A stretch of DNA of 63,980 nucleotides, filler included. It is 10 parts of 10 records of this genome, joined end to end, with 100 filler letters (N's around TTAATTAATTAA, not from the genome) between each part and the next. Parts side by side here need not be neighbours in the genome. Positions count along the whole stretch, not along the records: positions 6,445 to 14,143 come from SRR31147125_62594; 9 more parts are not named here. One strand, written 5' to 3'. The notes under the pieces are model-generated. The model saw only the letters and a list, made by a program, of their open reading frames with translations, was not told the origin of the DNA and did not search any database. Numbering within the stretch: the stretch's first letter is position 1; each line of letters begins with the position of its first letter. The position numbers were made by a program, and so were the translations under genes. Shown here one piece after another: positions 6,345 to 42,275 of the stretch.

Positions 6345-6444
6345 NNNNNNNNNNNNNNNNNNNNNNNNNNNNNNNNNNNNNNNNNNNNTTAATTAATTAA
6401 NNNNNNNNNNNNNNNNNNNNNNNNNNNNNNNNNNNNNNNNNNNN
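6345..6444. other. Artificial contig-joining spacer
   Basis: 44 N + TTAATTAATTAA (stops in all six frames) + 44 N. Confidence 0.99.
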
Positions 6445-6883
6445 GGAGCTGATAGAAATAACTAAAAACCATACATGCATGATCAAGGTCAAAACCTCGC
6501 TTACACAATGAATTGATAACGCTATCAGCAAAAGGTACAGGTAAGGATTTAGTCTCATTAGATAACTGTTTCACAGCCAAATCATCAAAATCAAAAATAC
6601 ATTCATGATAAAGTCGAAAACAGATAGAGTAATAGAAAAGTTCACGATCTTTACCTGAAAAATCATCTAATACGGCATGGCGGGCCAGACGTTTGTCAAT
6701 TTCTATTAAATAACTATCAATAGCGTTATTATAATTATCAGCTAAGTCCTTGCCTTCCAGAGGCTTATTTACACCGGTAATCTCGTATTCAAGGGGTAAG
6801 GATTCATCACCAAAAGGGTTAGCTAATACTTTAGTATATATTTTAGAAAAAAAATTACGTTCATTTGACAATAAATTAACCAT
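6445..6883 (-). CDS. N-terminal part of a probable sigma54-interacting transcriptional activator (host gene, truncated by contig end)
   Basis: ANPF near the N-terminus and FSYFYQL at the break match my recollection of the region preceding the AAA+ domain in one enhancer-binding-protein family; a divergent sigma54 promoter lies upstream. Confidence 0.55.
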
Positions 6884-7006
6884 ATAATTTCCTCAAAAAA
6901 AAGTAAATATACAATTAATGTACACGCTACGTTCATTAGATCAAGATAAATATTAGTAACTTGAAAATTATTTAATATTTTGAACAAATAATAGCCATTT
7001 CAAATT

Positions 7007-7024
7007 TTGGTACAATTATTGCTT
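7007..7024 (+). promoter_or_regulatory. Sigma54 (-24/-12) promoter
   Basis: TTGGTACAATTATTGCTT = GG-N10-GC, close to TGGCAC-N5-TTGC. Confidence 0.65.
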
Positions 7025-7072
7025 AATGAATACAAAGTAGCAATAATATAAATAAGAAAGGTAGTTCAATAA

Positions 7073-7198
7073 ATGTGTAATAAAATTAATAGAATAATAG
7101 CTTTTATACTAGTGTTAACAGCAATAACTAGCTGGTATAATTATCATATAAGTATTTGGTTAAAAGGCATATCAAATGTATTTTACTGTGGTTTATAA
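7073..7198 (+). CDS. 41-aa ORF with signal-peptide-like N-terminus (possible gene remnant)
   Basis: GAAAGGT RBS; MCNKINRIIAFILVLTAITSWYNYHISIWLKGISNVFYCGL*; directly downstream of the sigma54 promoter; below the ORF-track cutoff. Confidence 0.4.
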   Translation: MCNKINRIIAFILVLTAITSWYNYHISIWLKGISNVFYCGL

Positions 7199-7273
7199 TA
7201 ACTTGAAAATATGACAGCGAACCGTGTTAAGCGTATTTATATCTGAAGGGGACAGAATCCAACCATACCTGCA

Positions 7274-7301
7274 ACGTCCCATAATATATATTATGTTTCA
7301 T
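7274..7301 (+). other. dif-like XerC/XerD recombination site (probable prophage att junction)
   Basis: ACGTCCCATAA-TATATA-TTATGTTTCAT has the 11-6-11 layout with inverted CATAA/TTATG cores, as in E. coli dif GGTGCGCATAA-TGTATA-TTATGTTAAAT. Confidence 0.75.
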
Positions 7302-7365
7302 TTGATATATTTTAACAAAGTCATTAATGTCTGTCAACACTGTATTTACAAAAAATATAAAAAAT

Positions 7366-7614
7366 CTAATAAATAGTTCTATTAGAGGACAAATTCATTC
7401 TTTCAATACGTAAATTATGAGACGCTTTAAATCGTTTTTCACACATTTCCTTTTCCCAACCACGAAATAAATCTAAAACCCTATCTCTTGCATCATAAAA
7501 ATCAGAAAATATCAAATCACCATCTGGCCTTTGATAGGTCTCCGAAATACTTATATTGCGTGTATCAAGAAAAACATTTACTTTATATGAAATTTGTAAT
7601 CCGTCATAACTCAT
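7366..7614 (-). CDS. Hypothetical protein (prophage accessory)
   Basis: 82-aa ORF in AT-rich DNA, no recognisable motif. Confidence 0.45.
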   Translation of the reverse strand: MSYDGLQISYKVNVFLDTRNISISETYQRPDGDLIFSDFYDARDRVLDLFRGWEKEMCEKRFKASHNLRIERMNLSSNRTIY

Positions 7615-7672
7615 ATATAATGTATCGCTATAGCTATATTAAAACTTTAATATCATAAATGGAGATTATATT

Positions 7673-8113
7673 ATGGAATTTATTTTTAGAATACTGAAAG
7701 CATTGATTGAATTACTTTTTGGCAAAAGAAAAGAAATCACAAAAACCAATAATGATTCTTTTTATGTAAAAAAACAAATTATGAGCAACGCTGAATACTC
7801 ATTCTATCAAGTACTATTATCTTTCTTAGATAACGAATATACCGTATTTACAAAAATACGCATGATTGACATTATTGGCTCAAAAAATGCATGGCAAAAA
7901 GTAATACAAAAGCATCTTGATTTTGTAATATCTAAGAACAATAAAGCCTTGTTAGCGATAGAGTTAGACGACAAATCACATAACACAAGAAAAGACAAAG
8001 ATATACAAAAAAATGAGATTCTCAAATCTGCAGGCCTTCCAATTTTAAGAATCAAATGTCAAAGAGCTTATGAAACAAAAGAACTTAAAGAAGCAATAGA
8101 ACCATATATATAA
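7673..8113 (+). CDS. DUF2726 family protein (PD-(D/E)xK-like)
   Basis: GGAG RBS; MSNAEYSFY, KIRMIDII, KHLDFVI, AIELDDKSH, KNEILKSAGLPILRI motifs. Confidence 0.85.
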   Translation: MEFIFRILKALIELLFGKRKEITKTNNDSFYVKKQIMSNAEYSFYQVLLSFLDNEYTVFTKIRMIDIIGSKNAWQKVIQKHLDFVISKNNKALLAIELDDKSHNTRKDKDIQKNEILKSAGLPILRIKCQRAYETKELKEAIEPYI

Positions 8114-8743
8114 AACATAAATGAACAGGATAAAAGTACCGCCAAATGTAACTATTGATAGCGATATTTGGTAGTTGTATTCTATGCCATATCGGCAGAA
8201 AAAAAGGTATTGACAAGATTGAGAAAACTGATAATCGTTATTGTTTATAACACAATAAGTTATAGAAAGAATAAAAATTGCAATGCCTGGTAGAATAAAT
8301 TTGCCAGGCAAATTTTCTTTGTAAGTGAAGCACAAAAATAATCCAAATACATACCATGCACCATACTCTAATGGAAGCATTGTAAACATGAATAATAGTG
8401 CAAAAGTCCGATAATACATACCCCTCTTGTAGAACTCAAACACTGCGATCGTAGCTATAAATGTCCAGATTATGTTACATTGTCCGACGAGCTGAAAATG
8501 AAACATATGAGAAAGTATTGCAAGCCAGAAAAGACGAATAATATAAGTCGGTTTGGATGAAGTATGTTGCCACGACTGAAATACAAGATAAGAATATATA
8601 GGCATGGCTATACGACCGAAGACGCGAAGCATAATCGAATCTGGAAAGAAAAAACAACCTAAATGGTCTAAAATCATAGTAAATATAGCAATGTACTGTA
8701 AGTAAGCTCTGGTCAATTCTCGATTTTGAATAACTTGCTCCAT
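8085..8743 (-). CDS. TraX family (pilin acetylase-like) membrane protein, frameshifted near 8225
   Basis: IAIFTMILDH, FGRIAMPIY, YIIRLFWLAILS, LEYG motifs; adding one T to the T4 run at 8224-8227 restores QFFSILSIPF...WRYFYPVHL with stop at 8085. Confidence 0.8.
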
Positions 8744-9933
8744 ATCATAAACTTTCTATCTGAATTACTATCTGTTTTGAAGGTTTGGAAAAAGCCTGAT
8801 ATCTGAGTATCTAAAGACTTTTGCTGGAATGAACCAAGGAGATATATTTCACCTGAATCAACAATAGCAGACGTTCTGAACTCATCTGTTGAAAGATTTG
8901 GTGCAGACTCAGTATAACCAATGATACTTGAATAGGTGAGTTCAAGAGTTAACTTTGCTTGAGAGTTACCACAGTCGATTATATGGCATGATATCTGAAG
9001 ACCTGAATCGACATCTTGATAATCGGTAGTTTGAACCGTACCCGCATCTGAGACAGTTTTTAATGGGACTTTAATTGTCTGACCTGAATGATATTCAGAT
9101 GTTTCACCATCCTGAAGTACAAACATAGGTTCTGTTATAGTTTCGATTCGTTGGTCGGTTTTATCCGCTTTTATAAATGCTGATAAAATGCCTGTTGTAG
9201 CATCTGAAGCAGAGCCATTTACAAGCTTATAAGACAAATCAAAATCAATGTTGCTATCAACTCCAAATTCATCATAAAGAGAATCGGAAATGGACATAAC
9301 ATAGAATTGAACACACCAGCTATTAATAGGGGCCGATTCTATTCTGTCAAACATCTCATCAAGTTTGCGTAATAACTGAACCCTATCGCCAACAACAACA
9401 AGACCATCGGCATAGACAAGCCCTCTACCATATTCGGAACGCAATAATTCAATTGTATTCTGAAGACTATCTTTATCAACTCGATAGACCTTCCGAACAT
9501 ATACCCCCCTGTCCTCTGCTTTAATTTCACCTAAGTAATAAAGATTTCCGGAACGGGTAAGACTGACTTCCAATCGTCTAGCCAACATATCTAAAAGTGT
9601 ATTTACCGGCTGATTTTTGACATCTATAGTGACTTTTTTATCATCTAGATTAGATGCACATATAATTGATATACCTGCCTTATCCGCTAAAAGACGAAGA
9701 AATGAAACAAGTTCCATATCGTCGACTGCCAATGTAACCGACTCTAATAAAGGTTCTGAGATAGAACTTTGTTTTGAGACTTCAGAAAGCTGTTTATAAT
9801 ATTTTTCAAAATCTGCAATATAACTATTGGACTTTACGCTGCACCCCGAGACGCAAAACAGAATCGTCAGACAAGACAGCTTTACGACGTTTATAATCAA
9901 TTCTTTTAAGTTGTTTATTTTTATGTATGCCAT
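8713..9933 (-). CDS. Secretin (filamentous-phage pIV-like export channel), lipoprotein-like signal
   Basis: N0-like VTLAVDDMEL...VTIDVKNQPV; N3-like GLVVVGD; secretin core EPMFVLQDGE...GQTIKVP...YQDVDSGL...SGEIYLLGS; lipobox-like FCVSG-C. Confidence 0.85.
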   Translation of the reverse strand: MAYIKINNLKELIINVVKLSCLTILFCVSGCSVKSNSYIADFEKYYKQLSEVSKQSSISEPLLESVTLAVDDMELVSFLRLLADKAGISIICASNLDDKKVTIDVKNQPVNTLLDMLARRLEVSLTRSGNLYYLGEIKAEDRGVYVRKVYRVDKDSLQNTIELLRSEYGRGLVYADGLVVVGDRVQLLRKLDEMFDRIESAPINSWCVQFYVMSISDSLYDEFGVDSNIDFDLSYKLVNGSASDATTGILSAFIKADKTDQRIETITEPMFVLQDGETSEYHSGQTIKVPLKTVSDAGTVQTTDYQDVDSGLQISCHIIDCGNSQAKLTLELTYSSIIGYTESAPNLSTDEFRTSAIVDSGEIYLLGSFQQKSLDTQISGFFQTFKTDSNSDRKFMIWSKLFKIEN

Positions 9934-11161
9934 AATCTATTAAATCTCCGATTTTATATTCATAACCAATCTGAAGGACTATTGAATCTGGTGTAAACAT
10001 TACTACAGTTGAATTATATTGCAATTCAGCTTTCAACCTAGCAACCTGTTTTTTCTCTAGTGTTAATTTCGCTTGTAATGCCGCCCTTTGCTGCTCAAGT
10101 ACAAATTTCTCATTCTGTAACTGGATAACAATTTCAGAGTCTATTTCATAATCAGGTTGAGACCCATCATCTTTAATAGCTTGAACAGATTGTCTCTGTT
10201 TAGATTTTATAATTTCTTTTTGAGGTTCAGAAGATTGTTCAGTTGAAGCTGAAGCAGTAGCCATACCCATGGCACCAGTAAAACCGCTCATTAACCAGTT
10301 AAGACAAGTTATCATACCACCACAAATAGAAAGCCAGAATACAAAACCAACAATAGTAAAGCGAGTTGTCAATTCAAGAGTGTTGCGGCGGATGAACCAA
10401 AACAACAAACCAAGAGATGAACGACGTTGAAACTCTTGTTTTTGTGCATTACCTTTAAAGCCGCCAGCAAATGGCTTAGAATAAGAGTCATATACTTTAT
10501 ACAACGCTGGTAATCGATAAAAATATTTCTTAAGAGGTTCACCAGTTGAATTGTCACTTTTAGTTATCTGACATATCTTTGGATTATATTCACGAGTCAA
10601 ACAAGCTTTAAGCTCATACCAATCTTTGTTTAAAATTTTAAAGATTGAATCAAAATCAGTTTCACATGTTTTAAGTTCAATTGACTGATTTGCTGAATCA
10701 CGAATCGCAGGAGGCATATTTTTGACTTGTTGTGTTAACAATTCAATAGAACCGCCTCTATGCCTTATTTCGCCTAAAAAAGTAATCCAACCTTTTATAC
10801 GTGGGTCTGATCGTTTTTCACCTTCATAAAAATTATGAACCTCATCTATAGCAATATGAGTATTGTTCAAGTTTACATCTTTGAAAAAATCCCAAGGCTC
10901 AGATTTGCCAGTACGCCAATCCTCAAGAACGTGTTTAGGTATAAGTTTAATACGCTTTTTAAGGTCACGTGGATTAAGTTTAAGGCGAGGATGAAGCCTA
11001 GCACACATGACAGCCATTTTATTAACCTTGATAGGAAAATTAGAATAATGAACGCCATCATAAAAAGGTAAGAACTCGTTAAGCAAAAATTCAGCACAAC
11101 GGCTATATGTTTTGCCAACACCAACGGAACCAGTAGTTAATGTGATAATCCCATCTGGCAT
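9824..11161 (-). CDS. Zot/pI-like morphogenesis ATPase
   Basis: Walker A TGSVGVGKT at the N-terminus, Walker B IAIDEVH, IRHRG...LLTQ, YKVYDS, one TM segment, coiled-coil and basic C-terminal tail. Confidence 0.9.
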   Translation of the reverse strand: MPDGIITLTTGSVGVGKTYSRCAEFLLNEFLPFYDGVHYSNFPIKVNKMAVMCARLHPRLKLNPRDLKKRIKLIPKHVLEDWRTGKSEPWDFFKDVNLNNTHIAIDEVHNFYEGEKRSDPRIKGWITFLGEIRHRGGSIELLTQQVKNMPPAIRDSANQSIELKTCETDFDSIFKILNKDWYELKACLTREYNPKICQITKSDNSTGEPLKKYFYRLPALYKVYDSYSKPFAGGFKGNAQKQEFQRRSSLGLLFWFIRRNTLELTTRFTIVGFVFWLSICGGMITCLNWLMSGFTGAMGMATASASTEQSSEPQKEIIKSKQRQSVQAIKDDGSQPDYEIDSEIVIQLQNEKFVLEQQRAALQAKLTLEKKQVARLKAELQYNSTVVMFTPDSIVLQIGYEYKIGDLIDYGIHKNKQLKRIDYKRRKAVLSDDSVLRLGVQRKVQ

Positions 11162-11165
11162 AATA

Positions 11166-11576
11166 CTATCCTATAAATGGTACGTGTTTAATTATGAGTT
11201 TATACGTTACATAAACGCTCAAGAAAGCCCATCTAGCGAGCAATAGAGTAAATGCGAGAGATACAGGAGCCCAACAATTTGCAACAGCATAATGTTCCAT
11301 AACAGTTGAATAATCATCAGGGGAAACGGAAAAAGCGTTAAAGGCAGCTTGCAAAAGATTACCTAACAAGTTTTCAGATAAGCCAACAACCCAATCAAAA
11401 ACAGATCGAAGAATTCCAGGATCAACTGATGTACCCCAAAATACCTCTTGCCAAAAACCTTGCTGTTCAACATTCATACTATTAGGGTCAATAGGCTCAG
11501 TCTGTTCAGCAAAAACAGGAAAACACATTGATAACAACAACACAATAATAAAACTAGTCTTCATATTCACTATCAA
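11166..11576 (-). CDS. pVI-like minor coat protein
   Basis: Small hydrophobic protein immediately upstream of Zot; C-terminus LLARWAF...KLIIKHVPFIG resembles inovirus pVI ends. Confidence 0.6.
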   Translation of the reverse strand: MIVNMKTSFIIVLLLSMCFPVFAEQTEPIDPNSMNVEQQGFWQEVFWGTSVDPGILRSVFDWVVGLSENLLGNLLQAAFNAFSVSPDDYSTVMEHYAVANCWAPVSLAFTLLLARWAFLSVYVTYKLIIKHVPFIG

Positions 11577-12855
11577 TATCCTCTTCTTTATAATCAGCTA
11601 GATCATGAAATATTTTATTAAAAAAACTTACTAATAAAAACATACTCAAAATATTGTAAGTCATATCACGGATTGTAGAAATGTCAGTACTACCAACAAC
11701 TGTATTAGACATATCAAATTGAACATCTATATCATCAACACCACAAGGCAACTGAAAAGAAATATCATGCTGAACTAAATCATCCCACCAACCAGCGAAT
11801 TCAGCACCATCTTTGATAGACTCTAGATCGTCAAAACCGTCAAAGAATCCAAGTTGATCGGTTAGCAATTGCATATTCGTATCTAAATTTGATTTGATCA
11901 TGCCTTCAGTTTGTTCTGAAATAGAATCCGAATCGGAATAATCCCAAACCCAATAATCAGGGACTACATCTGGAGCAGAAAAAGAAATACCATCAGGAAG
12001 ATTCAAACCACAGAATTCATAGTAATCGGAATTGAAATTATAAAAATTATGGAAATCAAAAAATTTATAATATACCCACCTATAGCGATACTGTACGAAT
12101 CCCAAGCCGCCTATATAGTCAGGATAAACAGCTCTTAATGTTCCAGCACTGGGGTAATGCCCTAAATAATCCGAACCTTTGCCGAGCGGAAAAACAACAT
12201 AGACACTCATTTCACCACCGTCAAATAAATCTAAAGGAAATATATTATCGGGGTTAAAAGGGACGGATGTACGATATTCGTTATGTTCCTTTGCCGACTT
12301 ATTACAAAAAGTATAATCAGGAGCTTCATTCAAACTAACTGCAGGGTCATAAAAAACATCACCTGTAGAATAATCTACTGTAGGTATAAGCGTAAAATAA
12401 CCGCCTCCATGATAAGAGGCTGAACATAATGCATTTTTAGACTCGAGGTACCAGAATGTAGCATAAGTACCCTGTCTTGAAACTATTTGCCAATCATTAG
12501 CAATAGTATCTAAGTATTCCTGGGTGATCGGCGAGCCGTCATAGTTTGGCAGAAGTGCTTTAGGGTCAATAAAGCAATAGTAATAAAAATTACTATCCTT
12601 AGAATGATAAATAGTCATGTCGCCGAACATGGGATGATTTATAGTTTCTACGTTATCGATTACTGGTGCATTTTGCCAGCCTGTATAGTCTACATCTGTA
12701 CGCCATTGAGTAAAAAAATGCTTAACTGAAGGAGTCAAACTGGTATAACTAGAAGACATAACAGCAAAGTCAGCCATGTTGACAACGCCATCATTATTTA
12801 AGTCTTGAGCAAAAGCAGAGAAACATAAAAAAATTATTATGATAAATATACGCAT
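11554..12855 (-). CDS. pIII-like adsorption protein with N-terminal dockerin-type Ca-binding loop
   Basis: Signal peptide; DLNNDGVVNMAD at residues 18-29; C-terminal TM anchor IRDMTYNILSMFLLVSFF; located upstream of pVI-like and Zot genes. Confidence 0.6.
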   Translation of the reverse strand: MRIFIIIIFLCFSAFAQDLNNDGVVNMADFAVMSSSYTSLTPSVKHFFTQWRTDVDYTGWQNAPVIDNVETINHPMFGDMTIYHSKDSNFYYYCFIDPKALLPNYDGSPITQEYLDTIANDWQIVSRQGTYATFWYLESKNALCSASYHGGGYFTLIPTVDYSTGDVFYDPAVSLNEAPDYTFCNKSAKEHNEYRTSVPFNPDNIFPLDLFDGGEMSVYVVFPLGKGSDYLGHYPSAGTLRAVYPDYIGGLGFVQYRYRWVYYKFFDFHNFYNFNSDYYEFCGLNLPDGISFSAPDVVPDYWVWDYSDSDSISEQTEGMIKSNLDTNMQLLTDQLGFFDGFDDLESIKDGAEFAGWWDDLVQHDISFQLPCGVDDIDVQFDMSNTVVGSTDISTIRDMTYNILSMFLLVSFFNKIFHDLADYKEEDIDSEYED

Positions 12856-12856
12856 A

Positions 12857-13477
12857 TTATTTTACAATTACTGAAGTAAAAGAAGGACCTAATAAATTGG
12901 CAGAGTTAAAAGCACTATTAACAATAGAATTGTTACCAACTGCAAAAATATAATCAAATGAAAAGAAAGAACAAACGCCTGTATAAATCACATTATCACT
13001 GTAAGTACATAAATTAAATTTGAACAATAACGATTTTAAAGTTGAAGAATTGCACGAATCATCAGTTACAAACTGAAAGTCACAATAAGAAAAAATATAA
13101 TCGTCACAAAAAATCTCAATGTAATAGTCGTCAGAGTAAATAATATAACTACCAGTATCAATAAAAACATCAAAATAAAAGCTATCGTAATGGGCGTCAA
13201 AGTTAGAGAAAGTTAACGTGATAGCATCATTAACAGGTTTACCAGAATCACAAAAAACAGAATCATTATAAGATAAAAGGAAAGTCTCAATATAATCAGT
13301 GTTGTCTTTACAATCATATAGCCAATCCGAAAAAAATAACCTATTGTCTGAAATATTCGGGTCATAATTTTTTGAATACTCCGAAAAATCTATTAAATCA
13401 ACTCGATTATCATTATTAACGTCAGCAGAATATACAACACATGCAAAACTAATCAAAATCAACATTATCATTTTCAT
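12857..13477 (-). CDS. Secreted phage protein with dockerin-type Ca-binding loop
   Basis: Signal peptide ending VYSA; DVNNDNRVDLID at residues 19-30; Asp/Tyr/Phe-rich. Confidence 0.6.
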   Translation of the reverse strand: MKMIMLILISFACVVYSADVNNDNRVDLIDFSEYSKNYDPNISDNRLFFSDWLYDCKDNTDYIETFLLSYNDSVFCDSGKPVNDAITLTFSNFDAHYDSFYFDVFIDTGSYIIYSDDYYIEIFCDDYIFSYCDFQFVTDDSCNSSTLKSLLFKFNLCTYSDNVIYTGVCSFFSFDYIFAVGNNSIVNSAFNSANLLGPSFTSVIVK

Positions 13478-13838
13478 GGTTTATCTCCATTCCAAGTATA
13501 AAAGAAAATCTATTCATTAAATCATTATCGATTTCTTGTTTACTATTTTTATAAGTGTTTGGGTCTAAATCTCTTGATAAAAGAATATCCATATCAACAG
13601 AATACAACTCGATAAGTATATTAGAAGCTTCATGCTGTTCAGCAGTCAAAAGACCTATAGAATTAGGGTCAACATACATATCGTCAGATGTAAGACCGAC
13701 AGACAGCCTTGCATCATTAACAGCACAAGTTAGAGAATCAGACAAAACTACACGCCTTGCTAATAATTCAATCATAGAATCAGCAAAAAGAGTTACTGAA
13801 ACCAAACACACGATTACCATTGTCTTAAATATGTCCAT
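13449..13838 (-). CDS. Secreted hypothetical phage protein
   Basis: Signal-peptide-like N-terminus; overlaps both neighbouring genes. Confidence 0.55.
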   Translation of the reverse strand: MDIFKTMVIVCLVSVTLFADSMIELLARRVVLSDSLTCAVNDARLSVGLTSDDMYVDPNSIGLLTAEQHEASNILIELYSVDMDILLSRDLDPNTYKNSKQEIDNDLMNRFSFILGMEINHENDNVDFD

Positions 13839-14143
13839 ATCTTTTCAAAAATGCTATAAATAAAAATAAGCTCAAACAGAGTTTCATTGTTTTTCTAACA
13901 GTATCAAGAGTAGAGCCCGGTTCAGGTAGCATACTCCAACGAACTTCAACACCTTCATACATACCAAGTCCAGGTAAATTGAAAACAAACTCTTTGTTTG
14001 TTTCTTCTAAATCAGCAAAAGGAACAAATGTTGGTGAAGGGTCAAAACCTAAATCATCTCCAGTAACAGAAATACTATCACCATCTAATTCAAAATGAAC
14101 ATCAGGCTCGATTGGGTCACCAGCCAAAAGTAAGGAAGGTAAA
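13825..14143 (-). CDS. Phage protein with C-terminal TM anchor (5' truncated)
   Basis: Frame is open to the contig edge (LPSLLLAGDPIE...); C-terminus VRKTMKLCLSLFLFIAFLKR. Confidence 0.55.
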
Positions 14144-14243
14144 NNNNNNNNNNNNNNNNNNNNNNNNNNNNNNNNNNNNNNNNNNNNTTAATTAATTAAN
14201 NNNNNNNNNNNNNNNNNNNNNNNNNNNNNNNNNNNNNNNNNNN
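14144..14243. other. Artificial contig-joining spacer
   Basis: N44-TTAATTAATTAA-N44. Confidence 0.99.
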
Positions 14244-27535: not shown

Positions 27536-27687
27536 TCAAAGCAATAAAATATACATGTTGTAAAAGAAGCAACCTTTTCCAGTCCATTGGGTAAAAAGAG
27601 ATCTAATAATGGACTCTAATTCAAAAATTGATTAAAAACTTGTGTTGATATTACCAGCTACAAGAAATCATTTTTAGAGAGGAAAGC

Positions 27688-29659
27688 ATGAACGAACTTA
27701 CTCGATTGAATTCGCCGGATTACCTTATCATTGGTGTTTATATGGCTATCATGGTGGTCATTGGATTTGTAATGATGCGTTTTAATAAAGATGCTGAGGA
27801 CTATTTTCGTGGCGGTAATATGATGCCATTTTGGTTGGCTGGTGTATCCTTGTTTATGTCAGGATTCAGTGCCTGGGCTTTTACTGGTGGGGCTGGAATC
27901 GCATATTTGGGAGGAACTCTTGCCTTTGGTCTATTTTGGGCAAATGTATTAGCCTATCTTGTCGGTTACATGGTCTATGCAGTTCGGTGGCGACGTACAC
28001 GTTCTTTAACCATAGTGGAATATCTCAGTGAGCGTTATGATAAAAATGTACACCAGTTTATTTCCTGGTCAAATTTACCCATTGCATTACTGCAGGGGGG
28101 AATAGGGCTGTTTTCTCTTAGTATTTTTATTGCTTCAGCCACTAACCTTCGTATTCATTGGATCATTGTTATAAGCGGTCTGGTGATTTTGGTTTATACG
28201 ATGTTTGGTGGTTTTTGGGCTGTATGTATGACAGATACCATTCAGTTTTTAATTTTAATGCCCCTGGCCTTAATTGTACTAGTTGTGAGTGTCATTTACG
28301 TGGGCGGGCCCGGAGCCTTAATCGACAAATTGCCAACAGGTTTTTGGTTGCCTTATAATGAGGCCGCTCATTTTAGCAAGATTTATATTTTGGTGAATTT
28401 TATTGCTATGATTTTTATGTTCAATTCTGGTGGAGCTGCGCAACGATATTTTTCATCAAGAGATGAAAATGAAGCCAAAAAGATTGCTCTCATCACGATT
28501 TTCTTCTGTTTTGTAGGTCCAGTAATTTGGCTCGTTCCGCCCATGGTAGCCCGGGTTGTTTTTCCGGATATCGCACAAACAGCCAACCAAATGGGCTCAT
28601 TAGGATTAAACAGCCCCGAGAAGCTTCATATGTTTTTATGTGTTTGAAACTATTACCCCATGGATTGATTGGCCTTTTTGTGGCCGGAATGTTTTCCGCT
28701 ACAATGTCTTCCTTGTCAACCTCCTATAATATGATTGCCGGTGTTGTAACAAAAGATATCATTGGAACGGTTTTTATCAAAGATCCGTCATCAAAAAGAC
28801 TTCACCAAATTGGGCGACTGGTAACTCTGATCATGGGTGTGCTGGTGATTCTAACAGCCTTGTTGTATACAGCCTATAGCAACGGTGGCGTTTTTGATAT
28901 ACTTGTCAAAGTGACCGGTGCGTTTGGATTCCCCATTGCAATTCCTATTTTGTATGGTCTTGTATCTAAAAAAACACCCTCGTGGGTTCCTTATCTAATT
29001 ATCGTCGTAGGCATTTTTCAGGGTGCTATCATTGGGTTTGCTGATTTGGAGCATGTCTTTGGATTTGAATTTCCTTATCTATTTCAAATTGTCGTTCTTT
29101 CGATTATTTATTTTGTGCCTGGATTGCTCTTTAATCCACAGCCTTATCCCTCGCAAAAAGACCGATTTTATGCCCGAACTATATTATACGGAGGAATGCT
29201 CTTTTTCTGGCTTATGGTTATTTCCTGTTTTGCCACTTGCCGGAAGCCAATCTTGTATGGGCTGAAAAAATTGTTTTTCAATTATTCAGCAGTCCGGTAT
29301 GGATGTTAGCCTATTTTATTATCAGTATTGGATTGACTGAATTTATTTGTCGTTTGAATGTTACACCGCCCAATCAAGAGTACCTCAATCGGGTTGATCA
29401 TTTTTTCAATAAATTAGACACACCCGTGAATGTTAAAAAAGAGATCAGTGAAGATTTTGACGATAGTGATGCTCATCACTCCAGCATGAGAATATTAGGT
29501 TATGTGATGGTTGGAGTGGCTTTTTTTATGTATTTTTTCCTCTTGATTCAAATGACGAATCAGGAAAAATGGATCACAATTGCTGCGGCCACATTAAATC
29601 TGTTCATTGGCTTGGGATTGCTGGCAATCGGTAAAAAAAGACAAAAAAGGAATATATAA
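27688..29659 (+). CDS. Sodium:solute symporter (SSS), split by two frameshifts (near 28615 and 29235)
   Basis: DYFRGG, SGFSAWAFTG, GGFWAVCMTD, QRYFS, LPHGLIGLFVAGMFSATMSS spread over three overlapping ORFs. Confidence 0.85.
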
Positions 29660-40401: not shown

Positions 40402-42236
40402 GGGGAGTGCCAGCGGACGCCGAACCCGGCACCGTATTGTAATTTCATGCGGGAATAATCGTTGAATGCATTACCGACATCGGTAAACAACGCCACACTC
40501 CATACATCTTTTATCCGGTGTTCGTATTCCGCACTGACATTGAGAAAATGACGCCCTTCCACCAGGGTATCCATGCCGTTCAACTCTTCATAATCATAAC
40601 CTCGGACACTGCGATCTCCACCGGTACTGAATTGCAAGGCTTTCGGCAAGATCGCTTCATTATATTCTAATAGTAAATCGACCATTTCACAGTCTGTGTA
40701 CGCTGCATCGAATCGTCCGATAAATCGTCCTGATTTCCCAAGAGTGCGAACCAATTTGTTCATCACACGAGCTTGGAAGAAAGAGAAATTGGAGCCAAGG
40801 GACTCGCTCGTACCTTTCAAAGTCAAACCGACCTGCCATCCCCGTTGGGCATACGATCTATTGTCCGCGGCTGTGACACTCCAACTGATGGAGGGAATCA
40901 AAGCACGAAAGTTCGGCTCTAAAATTTCCAATTCTTCCGGAAGTAAAATTTCCCGATAGGCATCCACATCTTCTGCAACGGCTATCAACTCCAGCAGATT
41001 ATAATATTCCCACATGTATTCCAAAGAGATGGTTTCGCTGACTCCCCATCGCTTAAGTATATTTCCGAAAATGGTTTGAGAATGGTCGTGGCTGATTCGA
41101 AAAGAAAAGGTGTTGTCCCGGGTAACGCCTCCGGGTGCATCATTGTTTTCGGATAAATCACCCAGGTCTTCATACGGATAATCTTCGCCTTTATGATTCA
41201 GGCTGATTTCCCAATAGTTCTCATTGATATGTCCACTGGGGACGATGTAAGCAAATTTGGCCGCAATTTTTTTTATGCTGGGCGGCACTGAGTTTTCCTC
41301 TCAGACGATGCCCCGATTGGTTGAGGTAATGTCGTTGCCAGTCTGTGCCGAAACGCAATTGAGAATCGGTTCCAAAGCCCATCCGCAGGGTGTATCTATC
41401 TCTTCGTTTGGGCTCCGGATAAACTTCCAGCTGGACACCCGCGATTTCTTCAATTTTCTTTTGGTCAATATTTACCTGGCTGAAGTAATCACTGTTGTCG
41501 AGTGCGGTACGAAATTTCAGCAACGTATTGATGGAGTAGGGATCACCCGGTTGAAATGTGACAAAATCTTCTAAAAATTCTTCTTTGAAATCCGACTGCC
41601 GGAAAATGACTGGTAACAGACAATACCGGGACCCCGTATCCATGGCAAGATGAATTTTTGCATGATACGCCTGCTCATCGATGGTGATCCGGCTGTGGGT
41701 GAGGGTTGCATCAAAATATCCTCTGTCTTCACTCAAAACCGTCAATTGTCGCTTGGCATTTTCGTATTGAACTTGATTTAAGATCTCTCCTTTTTTAAGG
41801 GAAGATCTTTTACAATATCCATAAAAACCGGATCGACCAGGGCGTCTCCGGTAATGTCGATGGTTACCTCCGTCACCATCAACGGAGGCCCGAGAGTAAC
41901 GTCATATACGGCTCGCCACTGATCAGCTTCTTTATCATGATACAATGTTGTCTTGATTTCCGGACGATAATACCCAAAAGGGTTGACCGCCCGGGTGATC
42001 TCCGCTTCGGCTTTGGCATGAGACCGTTTTATGACGCCTGAAGTGAGCCTTTTACGTTTCTTTTGGCGAACGATGCTTAAATGGGCCATGATATTGTCAA
42101 ATATCGACCCTTCCACACCAATGACCTCGACCATCAGCGATTCGGCACCCTGGGCGGTAACCGGTAGTACTAAAAGCATCAACATACCAACTATTAAACC
42201 GTTGATTCCAGGCCATGGTGAGTGTCGCAGCATCAT
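40402..42236 (-). CDS. tamA: TamA / Omp85 family outer-membrane protein, two frameshifts (near 41795 and 41270), 3' truncated
   Basis: POTRA PFGYYRP and RGYFDA...DTGSRY; barrel FSTGGDRSVRGY, ALFTDVGNAF, GAGFGVRWHS; breaks at A-runs. Confidence 0.85.
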
Positions 42237-42275
42237 TGTCGTTTTTCAATATTTCAGAATTGAGTATTTATTATT

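Follow-up and report, generated by a model that had tools for sequence, protein, structure and literature searches.

The stretch of DNA considered here (the window, 63,980 bases) comprises ten contigs of 5.1-7.7 kb each and is not one stretch of a genome, the contigs being separated by linkers of 44 N, TTAATTAATTAA and a further 44 N (window 6345-6444, 14144-14243 and seven further places). One of these contigs, at 6445-14143 (7,699 bases), holds two adjacent genes on the minus strand, whose products form the subject of this study. The first, p433 (11554..12855), encodes a protein of 433 residues with a predicted signal peptide, a dockerin-type module, an orphan body, a weakly pIII-like C-terminal anchor domain and a 12-residue acidic tail. 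The second, p206 (12857..13477), encodes a predicted secreted protein of 206 residues, in which a signal peptide and a dockerin-type module precede an acidic body that is rich in aromatic residues and lacks a membrane anchor. What the two proteins share is, by sequence, an autonomous module of about 35 residues at the N-terminus, consisting of one 12-residue dockerin-type calcium loop, a putative short helix and an FFxxW element. All features of this contig described below lie on the minus strand unless stated otherwise.

The p433 protein begins with MRIFIIIIFLCFSAFA, followed by a predicted cleavage site and by QDLNNDGVVNMADF...FFTQW, while p206 begins with MKMIMLILISFACVVYS, a predicted cleavage site and ADVNNDNRVDLIDF...FFSDW. 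Both N-termini are hydrophobic (Kyte-Doolittle values of 1.95 and 1.92 in 19-residue windows, with hydrophobic residues spanning 1-21 in p433). Small residues at positions -3 and -1 mark signal-peptidase sites, and these positions are occupied accordingly in A-F-A of p433, ahead of Q, and in V-Y-S of p206. The signal peptides were called by hydrophobicity and this -3/-1 rule and not by a dedicated predictor, and the predicted cleavage sites would place the start of the loop one to two residues into the mature protein. In p433 the loop is DLNNDGVVNMAD followed by F (D18-F30, 12766..12804) and in p206 it is DVNNDNRVDLID followed by F (D19-F31, 13385..13423), the latter with D/N/D/D/D at positions 1, 3, 5, 9 and 12 and V at position 8. 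Further along the module follows the second conserved element, FFTQW in p433 (residues 47-51, 12703..12717) and FFSDW in p206 (residues 48-52, 13322..13336). An earlier, sequence-only reading of this DNA had described two adjacent proteins with such a loop behind the signal peptide and an FFxxW motif further on, and this description has stood, its coordinates being accurate to within 3 nucleotides.

A search of 198 six-frame open reading frames (ORFs) of at least 60 residues (31,779 residues in total) with the strict pattern D.N.D[GN].[VIL][ND]..D[FLIVMY] returned exactly two matches, those in p433 and p206, against about 1.5e-4 occurrences expected from composition in the same ORFs. A chance origin of the two loops is excluded. 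When compared by BLASTP, the proteins align over residues 1-55 of p433 and 3-56 of p206 (E 7e-6, 18/55 identical) and show no similarity elsewhere, the two bodies resembling neither one another nor anything else that was searched. The score observed for the 20 residues from the loop onward was reached by none of 2000 shuffles, and that of the FFxxW segment by 47 of 2000. Besides the calcium ligands, the module conserves the aromatic residues F13, Y20, FF and W.

In Pfam, the two proteins both find their best family in Dockerin_1 (E 0.016 and 0.021, 15.8 and 15.4 bits), the matches spanning profile positions 2-19 and 2-22 of 57. When all PDB sequences were searched with a profile built from the two modules, 21 matches were listed at E<=10, of which the best seven, and 15 of the 21 overall, are dockerins or cellulosomal enzymes according to the names given by their depositors; four of the 21 are EF-hand proteins. 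The top matches were 2y3n_B (E 9.3e-5), 2vn5_B (0.0018) and 2vn6_B (0.0035), and the alignments cover profile positions 1-23 only, leaving the FFxxW part unmatched. The ligands at loop positions 1, 3, 5, 9 and 12 follow the canonical pattern, as does position 8 in being hydrophobic. The loops of p433 and p206 align to both loops of the solved dockerins, and 10 of 12 residues are the same in the p433 loop and in the first loop of 2y3n_B. An F-hand loop, with a putative helix behind it, can be read in both proteins. Neither protein was matched by the TSP3_bac family (PF18884), even at E<=1.

Outside the window, neither protein has a homologue among the proteins searched, apart from one match to the loop. 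For p433, 2,089 word candidates from 5.8 billion clustered proteins yielded none at E<=0.01, and a full HMMER scan of 1.84 billion representatives yielded a single match (P0041, E 3.8e-4), confined to the loop, in a 917-residue protein with many dockerin repeats. For p206, none of 103 candidates was confirmed. Neither protein was matched in PHROGs or NCBIfam. The ESM Atlas gave no usable match for p433; for p206 the nearest entries were small Planctomycetota proteins with Dockerin_1, at a score of 0.85, which lies below 0.9 and is to be taken as a lead only. The first 60 residues of p433 gave eight weak matches among phages, the best of which (L045, E 0.5, in a 499-residue ORF without loop context) was judged to be due to chance. 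In IMG/VR, the module profile gave 199 pattern matches, three of which were confirmed (L066, L067 and L068), none in an inovirus context; L068 carries a two-loop protein on a 46-kb contig. L066:5701-6102 and L067:2460-2861 encode an identical phage protein of 134 residues with a signal peptide, an fn3-like domain and one C-terminal, Cys-flanked dockerin-type loop at residue 101, which scores 20.1 bits against Dockerin_1. Both contigs are unlike inoviruses, that of L066 being tailed-phage-like, while the ORFs of L067 were judged by eye. This single-loop protein indicates that half dockerins occur in other phages. A local phmmer search of orf129 (the gene next to p206, described below), p206, p433 and two other ORFs of the contig against the ORFs of all fetched loci found only the L066/L067 loop.

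The genes surrounding p433 and p206 place them in a filamentous phage, as the sequence-only reading had assumed. A Zot-domain assembly ATPase (pI) is encoded at 9824..11161 (Pfam PF05707, E 4.7e-8; phrog_197, E 4.6e-11; 40 homologues), a pIV-like secretin at 8713..9933 (Pfam PF00263, E 1.4e-10; phrog_1012, 'protein IV of M13', E 8.3e-15), and p136, which is homologous to the pVI-position protein of the clade and carries an additional signal-peptide extension at its N-terminus, at 11166..11576 (hhalign probability 98.1%, E 7.5e-14). The pI, secretin and pVI genes thus lie in one same-strand block, the arrangement of an inovirus module, and the contig represents part of an inovirus, relatives of which occur mostly in Planctomycetota and other bacteria of the Planctomycetes-Verrucomicrobia-Chlamydiae (PVC) group. 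No major coat protein, single-stranded DNA-binding protein or replication initiator was recognisable on the cut 7.7-kb contig. Adjoining the secretin gene, a TraX-family membrane protein is encoded at 8045-8743 (Pfam E 2.3e-11); TraX is known from F-plasmid pilin acetylation, and an ORF similar to it by eye lies just upstream of Zot in a Phycisphaeraceae locus (L012:6300-6977). The opposite strand of the contig carries a DUF2726/DUF559 endonuclease-like gene at 7673-8113 (+; Pfam E 4.2e-25).

The p433 gene occupies the position of pIII, directly upstream of the pVI homologue: its end at 11554 lies beyond the beginning of p136 (11576), so that the two genes overlap, and Zot comes next. Its C-terminal domain (about residues 335-422, 11590..11853) aligns end to end, if weakly, with the anchor domain found in the pIII-position proteins of related phages: the last 140 residues gave an hhalign probability of 42% against the C-terminal profile of these proteins (E 2.6e-4, 85 columns in register). 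The p433 sequence closes with ...LADY and the acidic tail, where the related proteins have ...LRQ[YW] behind a hydrophobic stretch. No alignment to the same profile was obtained for p206 (E 0.21), which has no hydrophobic segment besides its leader, or for orf129 (E 0.73), a signal-peptide orphan of 129 residues without a calcium loop encoded at 13449..13838. Beyond orf129, the contig end cuts a further gene (13814..14143), of which only the 3' end is present. The ORF at 13825-14143 fits the pIII profile better than p433 does (probability 59.5%, E 9e-5), and a second assembly places one more A behind 13846, a one-base homopolymer difference with which the downstream frame reads EKIWTYLRQW-stop, the C-terminal signature of the clade. 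This better fit and the LRQW end indicate that the pIII orthologue of the clade is the truncated gene at the contig end. The p433 C-terminus matches this pIII fragment at equivalent places (BLASTP E 0.006), and p433 looks like a second, diverged pIII-type protein. The genes orf129, p206 and p433 form a three-gene block between pIII and pVI, packed with 1-nucleotide or overlapping junctions, that most related phages do not have, pVI mostly following directly after pIII in those. The location at the virion tip proposed by the sequence-only reading is plausible only for p433, given its pIII position and weakly pIII-like anchor, and not for p206, which has no anchor; the real pIII orthologue is a third gene.

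Forty-four related loci, fetched with alignments of the Zot homologues, were available for comparison (4 from IMG/VR, 21 from genomes and 19 from metagenomes). The genome loci belong mostly to Phycisphaerae, Sedimentisphaerales, Planctomycetaceae, Pirellula, Victivallales, Lentisphaeria and Verrucomicrobiota, with others from Hydrogenedentes and Zixiibacteriota, and include metagenome-assembled genomes (MAGs). Cultured Lentisphaerae have been reported to release inoviruses (PMC11361711). The Zot of the window had no match among INPHARED phages, and single queries with it, P0001, P0002, p433 and the secretin gave none in IMG/VR; P0001 (46% identity, on a contig of 8,497 nucleotides) and P0002 (41%, on one of 6,451 nucleotides) are the two nearest relatives of this Zot. 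In 30 of the 44 loci Zot is closely preceded by the end of a large ORF, mostly directly before a pVI-like gene, while the DNA upstream of Zot is too short in the remaining 14. These pIII-position proteins share a C-terminal domain that closes with the hydrophobic stretch and signature already mentioned. Between one and nine 12-residue DxDxDG loops, mostly of the TSP3 type, occur in 16 of the 30 (for example L020:4836-6674, L024:5073-6644 and L008:5220-6647), as against 2 of 214 background ORFs, these being the other non-overlapping ORFs of at least 200 residues in the same loci; one of the two loop-bearers is itself a fragment of a split pIII gene. The 16 ORFs are not independent, as they include close relatives and second copies in one chromosome, and amount to roughly eight lineages. 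Two related inovirus prophage copies each are present in complete MAG chromosomes at L005/L007 (overlapping by about 4.5 kb) and L008/L009 (about 3.4 kb apart), the pIII-position gene of L009 being shortened at its 5' end. The Pfam cut-off for TSP3_bac was passed by 10 of the 30 proteins.

Calcium loops have also been detected at the pVI position, where the proteins of L018:6510-6980 and L019:6372-6848 have an N-terminal signal-peptide extension holding an EF-type loop (DANGDGVMTGGE and DANLDGKFTDGE). The extension of p136 in the window is homologous to these forms (BLASTP to the extended L018 form, E 3e-5), minus the loop. Taken together, the loops in pIII- and pVI-position proteins suggest that calcium loops are recurrent in the tip proteins of this clade, where they are gained and lost. 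At E<=0.1, Dockerin_1 matched none of 10 pIII-position proteins bearing TSP3-type loops and neither of the two loop-bearing pVI forms, which indicates that the match of p433 and p206 is not generic to DxDxDG loops. The strict pattern occurred twice in the 2,030 ORFs of the 44 loci, one of the matches lying at residue 121 of the L019 pIII-position protein, and none of these loci shares the N-terminal tag of dockerin type with the window.

On the host side, five genomes hosting related prophages were searched. Dockerin_1 gave 16 and 19 matches in two of them, with records titled Phycisphaerales and Sedimentisphaerales, and none in the other three, while Pfam Cohesin (PF00963) was found in none of the five; nor was a cohesin detected among the 54 other ORFs of the window (E<=0.001). 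Among the best 20 host dockerins, 16 are C-terminal, three internal and one N-terminal, directly behind a signal peptide. A 'planctosome' has been proposed for freshwater Planctomycetes, with an adaptor comprising a signal peptide, a dockerin, HYR and a cohesin, and with an anchor that combines TSP3 repeats and a cohesin (PMC6461901). Judged from literature listings, no publication linking dockerins or TSP3 repeats to natural inovirus proteins was found; the co-mentions with dockerin or phage display in title or abstract are phage-display studies, and the others contain both terms a single time each.

With a guanine plus cytosine (GC) content of 0.331, the phage contig differs from the other nine (0.40-0.56), which carry mainly glycoside hydrolase and housekeeping genes. 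Given ten joined contigs ranging from 0.33 to 0.56, genes on either side of a linker are not natural neighbours. A comparison of two proteins from these contigs with five test genomes did not discriminate between hosts, a GS-III protein being 44-47% identical to four of the five, and the identity of a GH95 protein being 26-33%. No RNA data set was listed as containing this DNA. The second assembly, from a run in which the DNA is present, reproduces both genes letter for letter, with no difference within 11554-13477, although this run may be the source of the window and hence is not independent. It has one extra A at each of three homopolymers, at 13846, 6894 (just upstream of the ORF at 6446-6883) and 8223 (inside the TraX-like gene), and extends past the contig ends by 369 nucleotides at 14143 and by 1,120 nucleotides at 6445. 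No sign of circularity was found for the phage contig, there being neither a terminal overlap nor a joint in the second assembly. On other contigs, a sodium:solute symporter gene (27649-29306) and a gene for an Omp85/POTRA protein (40404-42245) are each broken into overlapping ORFs, which fits indel errors in the assembly such as the three on the phage contig. A secreted protein of 586 residues, without a Pfam family and adjoining GHL15 and GH95 genes on a different contig (15221-16981, +), has two EF-type loops, DTDNDNVFNYID at residue 158 and DTDDNGFIDKIE at residue 449, plus further D-rich stretches.

These observations may best be accommodated if the shared module is an autonomous, calcium-dependent docking or pairing tag, a reading suggested by the sequences and given a likelihood not far short of even. 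Such a tag would send two otherwise unrelated ectodomains to one partner in the presence of calcium. As the tag is all that p206 and p433 have in common, it would most likely address both to the same partner. The p433 protein would be held at the virion end by its pIII-type C-terminal domain, which would make its tag the most distal element, and p206, having no anchor, would need the tag in order to be held. EF-hand-type loops normally work in pairs, so that the simplest partner of one tag would be the other: the two single loops would pair like both loops of one dockerin and thereby hang p206 on virion-anchored p433. Alternatively, both tags may address a common third partner on the phage or on the host envelope. 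The more specific proposal of a split dockerin, in which the F-hands of p206 and p433 pair in trans with calcium into a two-loop, dockerin-like knot, is considered improbable in that precise form, as is its alternative, in which both tags plug into one host-surface scaffold of a Planctomycete-type docking system. If pairing holds, the filamentous phage would carry a plug-in adaptor or receptor-binding protein on its tip, and either version would amount to a modular, calcium-switched adsorption apparatus of a kind not described for inoviruses.

Several results weigh against the docking tag. Each protein has a single strict loop and not the two tandem loop-helix repeats that define a dockerin, and a search for a degenerate second loop was unsuccessful, the internal-repeat scores being reached by 439 and 1280 of 2000 shuffles. 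Both Dockerin_1 scores fall below the Pfam gathering cut-off of 22.9 bits. The dockerin-type loop proposed by the sequence-only reading has been retained, in that Dockerin_1 is the best family and dockerins come first in the PDB, while a full dockerin has not; with one repeat and a sub-threshold score, the modules are half-dockerins by sequence. The cut-off itself bears on this point, since the single loop of the L066 protein reaches just 20.1 bits, which indicates that a half module cannot pass it. The fold and the conservation that might have strengthened the earlier reading did not materialise: single-sequence AlphaFold2 models were unusable (mean predicted local distance difference test, pLDDT, of 34.8 for p206 and 33.8 for p433), and none of the 44 related loci contains the N-terminal module, with no EF- or dockerin-type loop in the first 60 residues of any of their 2,030 ORFs. 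A complex prediction with residues 17-64 of p433, 18-64 of p206 and two calcium ions scored 0.02, against a mark of 0.34, and speaks neither for nor against binding. The module has no homologue apart from loop matches, the likeness of the p433 C-terminus to pIII appears weak, and the incorporation of p433 and p206 into the virion is inferred from gene position only. Lastly, the phage contig is a fragment out of a mixed contig set.

The strongest competitor to the docking tag is a purely structural role, in which the loop clamps the N-terminus of the ectodomain in calcium-rich water, as happens in many extracellular proteins, without any docking. The likeness of p433 and p206 would then go back to an ancient event, a duplication or recombination that involved the 5' end with leader and cap. 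The scattering of TSP3 and EF-type loops, which come and go in the tip proteins of the clade, would fit such a generic stabilising or linker role, as would the failure to find a cohesin partner in the window ORFs or the five host genomes, and the divergence of the two 5' ends at the DNA level would date the duplication far back. If a clamp formed part of a domain, however, a homologous domain would be expected along with it, whereas just about 35 residues are common to the two proteins and the bodies are unrelated. Moreover, aromatic residues of an exposed type (F13, Y20, FF and W) are conserved beyond the calcium ligands, and a lone EF-type loop is rarely stable unpaired. A clamp alone is regarded as rather unlikely.

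A second competitor would remove the proteins from the virion altogether, with orf129, p206 and p433 forming an inserted cassette of secreted accessory proteins that alters the host surface and derives in part from small dockerin-type proteins of the host. All three genes are orphans and are extra relative to the related phages, the true pIII orthologue is a different gene, and the Atlas lead ties p206 to small Planctomycetota dockerin proteins, although as a lead only. What speaks for a structural gene block is that the end of p433 is similar to the pIII anchor domain, in register as far as the hydrophobic end, that the tight junctions lie inside the structural block, and that the GC content and composition of these genes match the rest of the contig; the cassette is held to be improbable. 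Least probable of all, by a small step, is true dockerin-cohesin docking, in which the loops would bind a cohesin-like module of a host surface scaffold as receptor and which corresponds to the mimicry of host docking modules suggested by the sequence-only reading, for although the loop is closest in sequence to solved dockerins, is placed distally at the N-terminus of a protein in the pIII position and has possible counterparts in the two dockerin-bearing host genomes and in the cohesin/dockerin systems proposed for Planctomycetes (PMC6461901), there is one loop-helix instead of two, the Pfam cut-off is not reached, Cohesin is absent from the host genomes and window ORFs searched, and host dockerins are mostly C-terminal.

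The docking tag, if borne out, would matter for a group of phages about which little has been established. To our knowledge, the adsorption proteins of filamentous phages beyond the proteobacterial models are essentially uncharacterised, and we know of no receptor for inoviruses of Planctomycetota and other PVC bacteria. A portable calcium-dependent tag, together with the enrichment of calcium repeats across the clade, would provide testable handles on how the tip is built and how the host is found. A half-dockerin that works by pairing would, moreover, bear on the origin of dockerins by duplication, and could serve as a small calcium-switchable tag.

Among known systems, the type I dockerin (PF00404; 2y3n_B, 2vn5_B and 2vn6_B) comes closest to the shared module. 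Both have a 12-residue calcium loop whose positions 1, 3, 5, 9 and 12 read D/N/D/(N or D)/D; position 8 is hydrophobic, the next helix opens with an aromatic or hydrophobic residue, and there is no entering helix. Type I dockerins differ in having two tandem loop-helices in a module of about 60-70 residues, where p433 and p206 have one each, and the FFxxW element of the latter is without a dockerin counterpart. The position differs as well, the module of p433 and p206 being N-terminal, just after the leader, while host dockerins are mostly C-terminal. The EF-hand proteins among the weaker PDB matches (2sas_A, 3k21_A and intersectin) have the canonical 12-residue loop geometry in common with p433 and p206, whose loops lack a preceding helix, have D and not E at position 12, and occur in single copy. 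TSP3 repeats (PF18884) in the pIII-position proteins of related PVC inoviruses likewise bring calcium-binding DxDxDG loops into tip proteins, but these form internal arrays of one to nine repeats with no hydrophobic position 8 and no Dockerin_1 match.

The overall arrangement can be set beside one cellular and one viral system. The proposed planctosome adaptor is, like p433 and p206, a secreted protein in which a signal peptide is directly followed by a dockerin, it has TSP3 repeats in its partner, and it is proposed for Phycisphaerae-related Planctomycetes (PMC6461901), which belong to the same bacterial phylum as hosts of the phage's relatives. It differs in being a cellular peptidase scaffold, itself hypothetical, in which the dockerin and cohesin domains are complete, and no link to phages is described for it (PMC6461901). 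The pIII protein of Ff phages (g3p), which serves in adsorption and capping, resembles p433 in having a signal peptide, a distal N-terminal functional part and a C-terminal hydrophobic anchor domain, and its gene likewise immediately precedes pVI and pI. The two are not alike in sequence (no Pfam or PHROG match to Ff pIII), and the phage of the window apparently has, in p433, a second pIII-type gene in addition to the orthologue at the contig end. The N-terminal domains of Ff pIII bind TolA and the pilus, and it is in the place of these domains that p433 carries its calcium loop.

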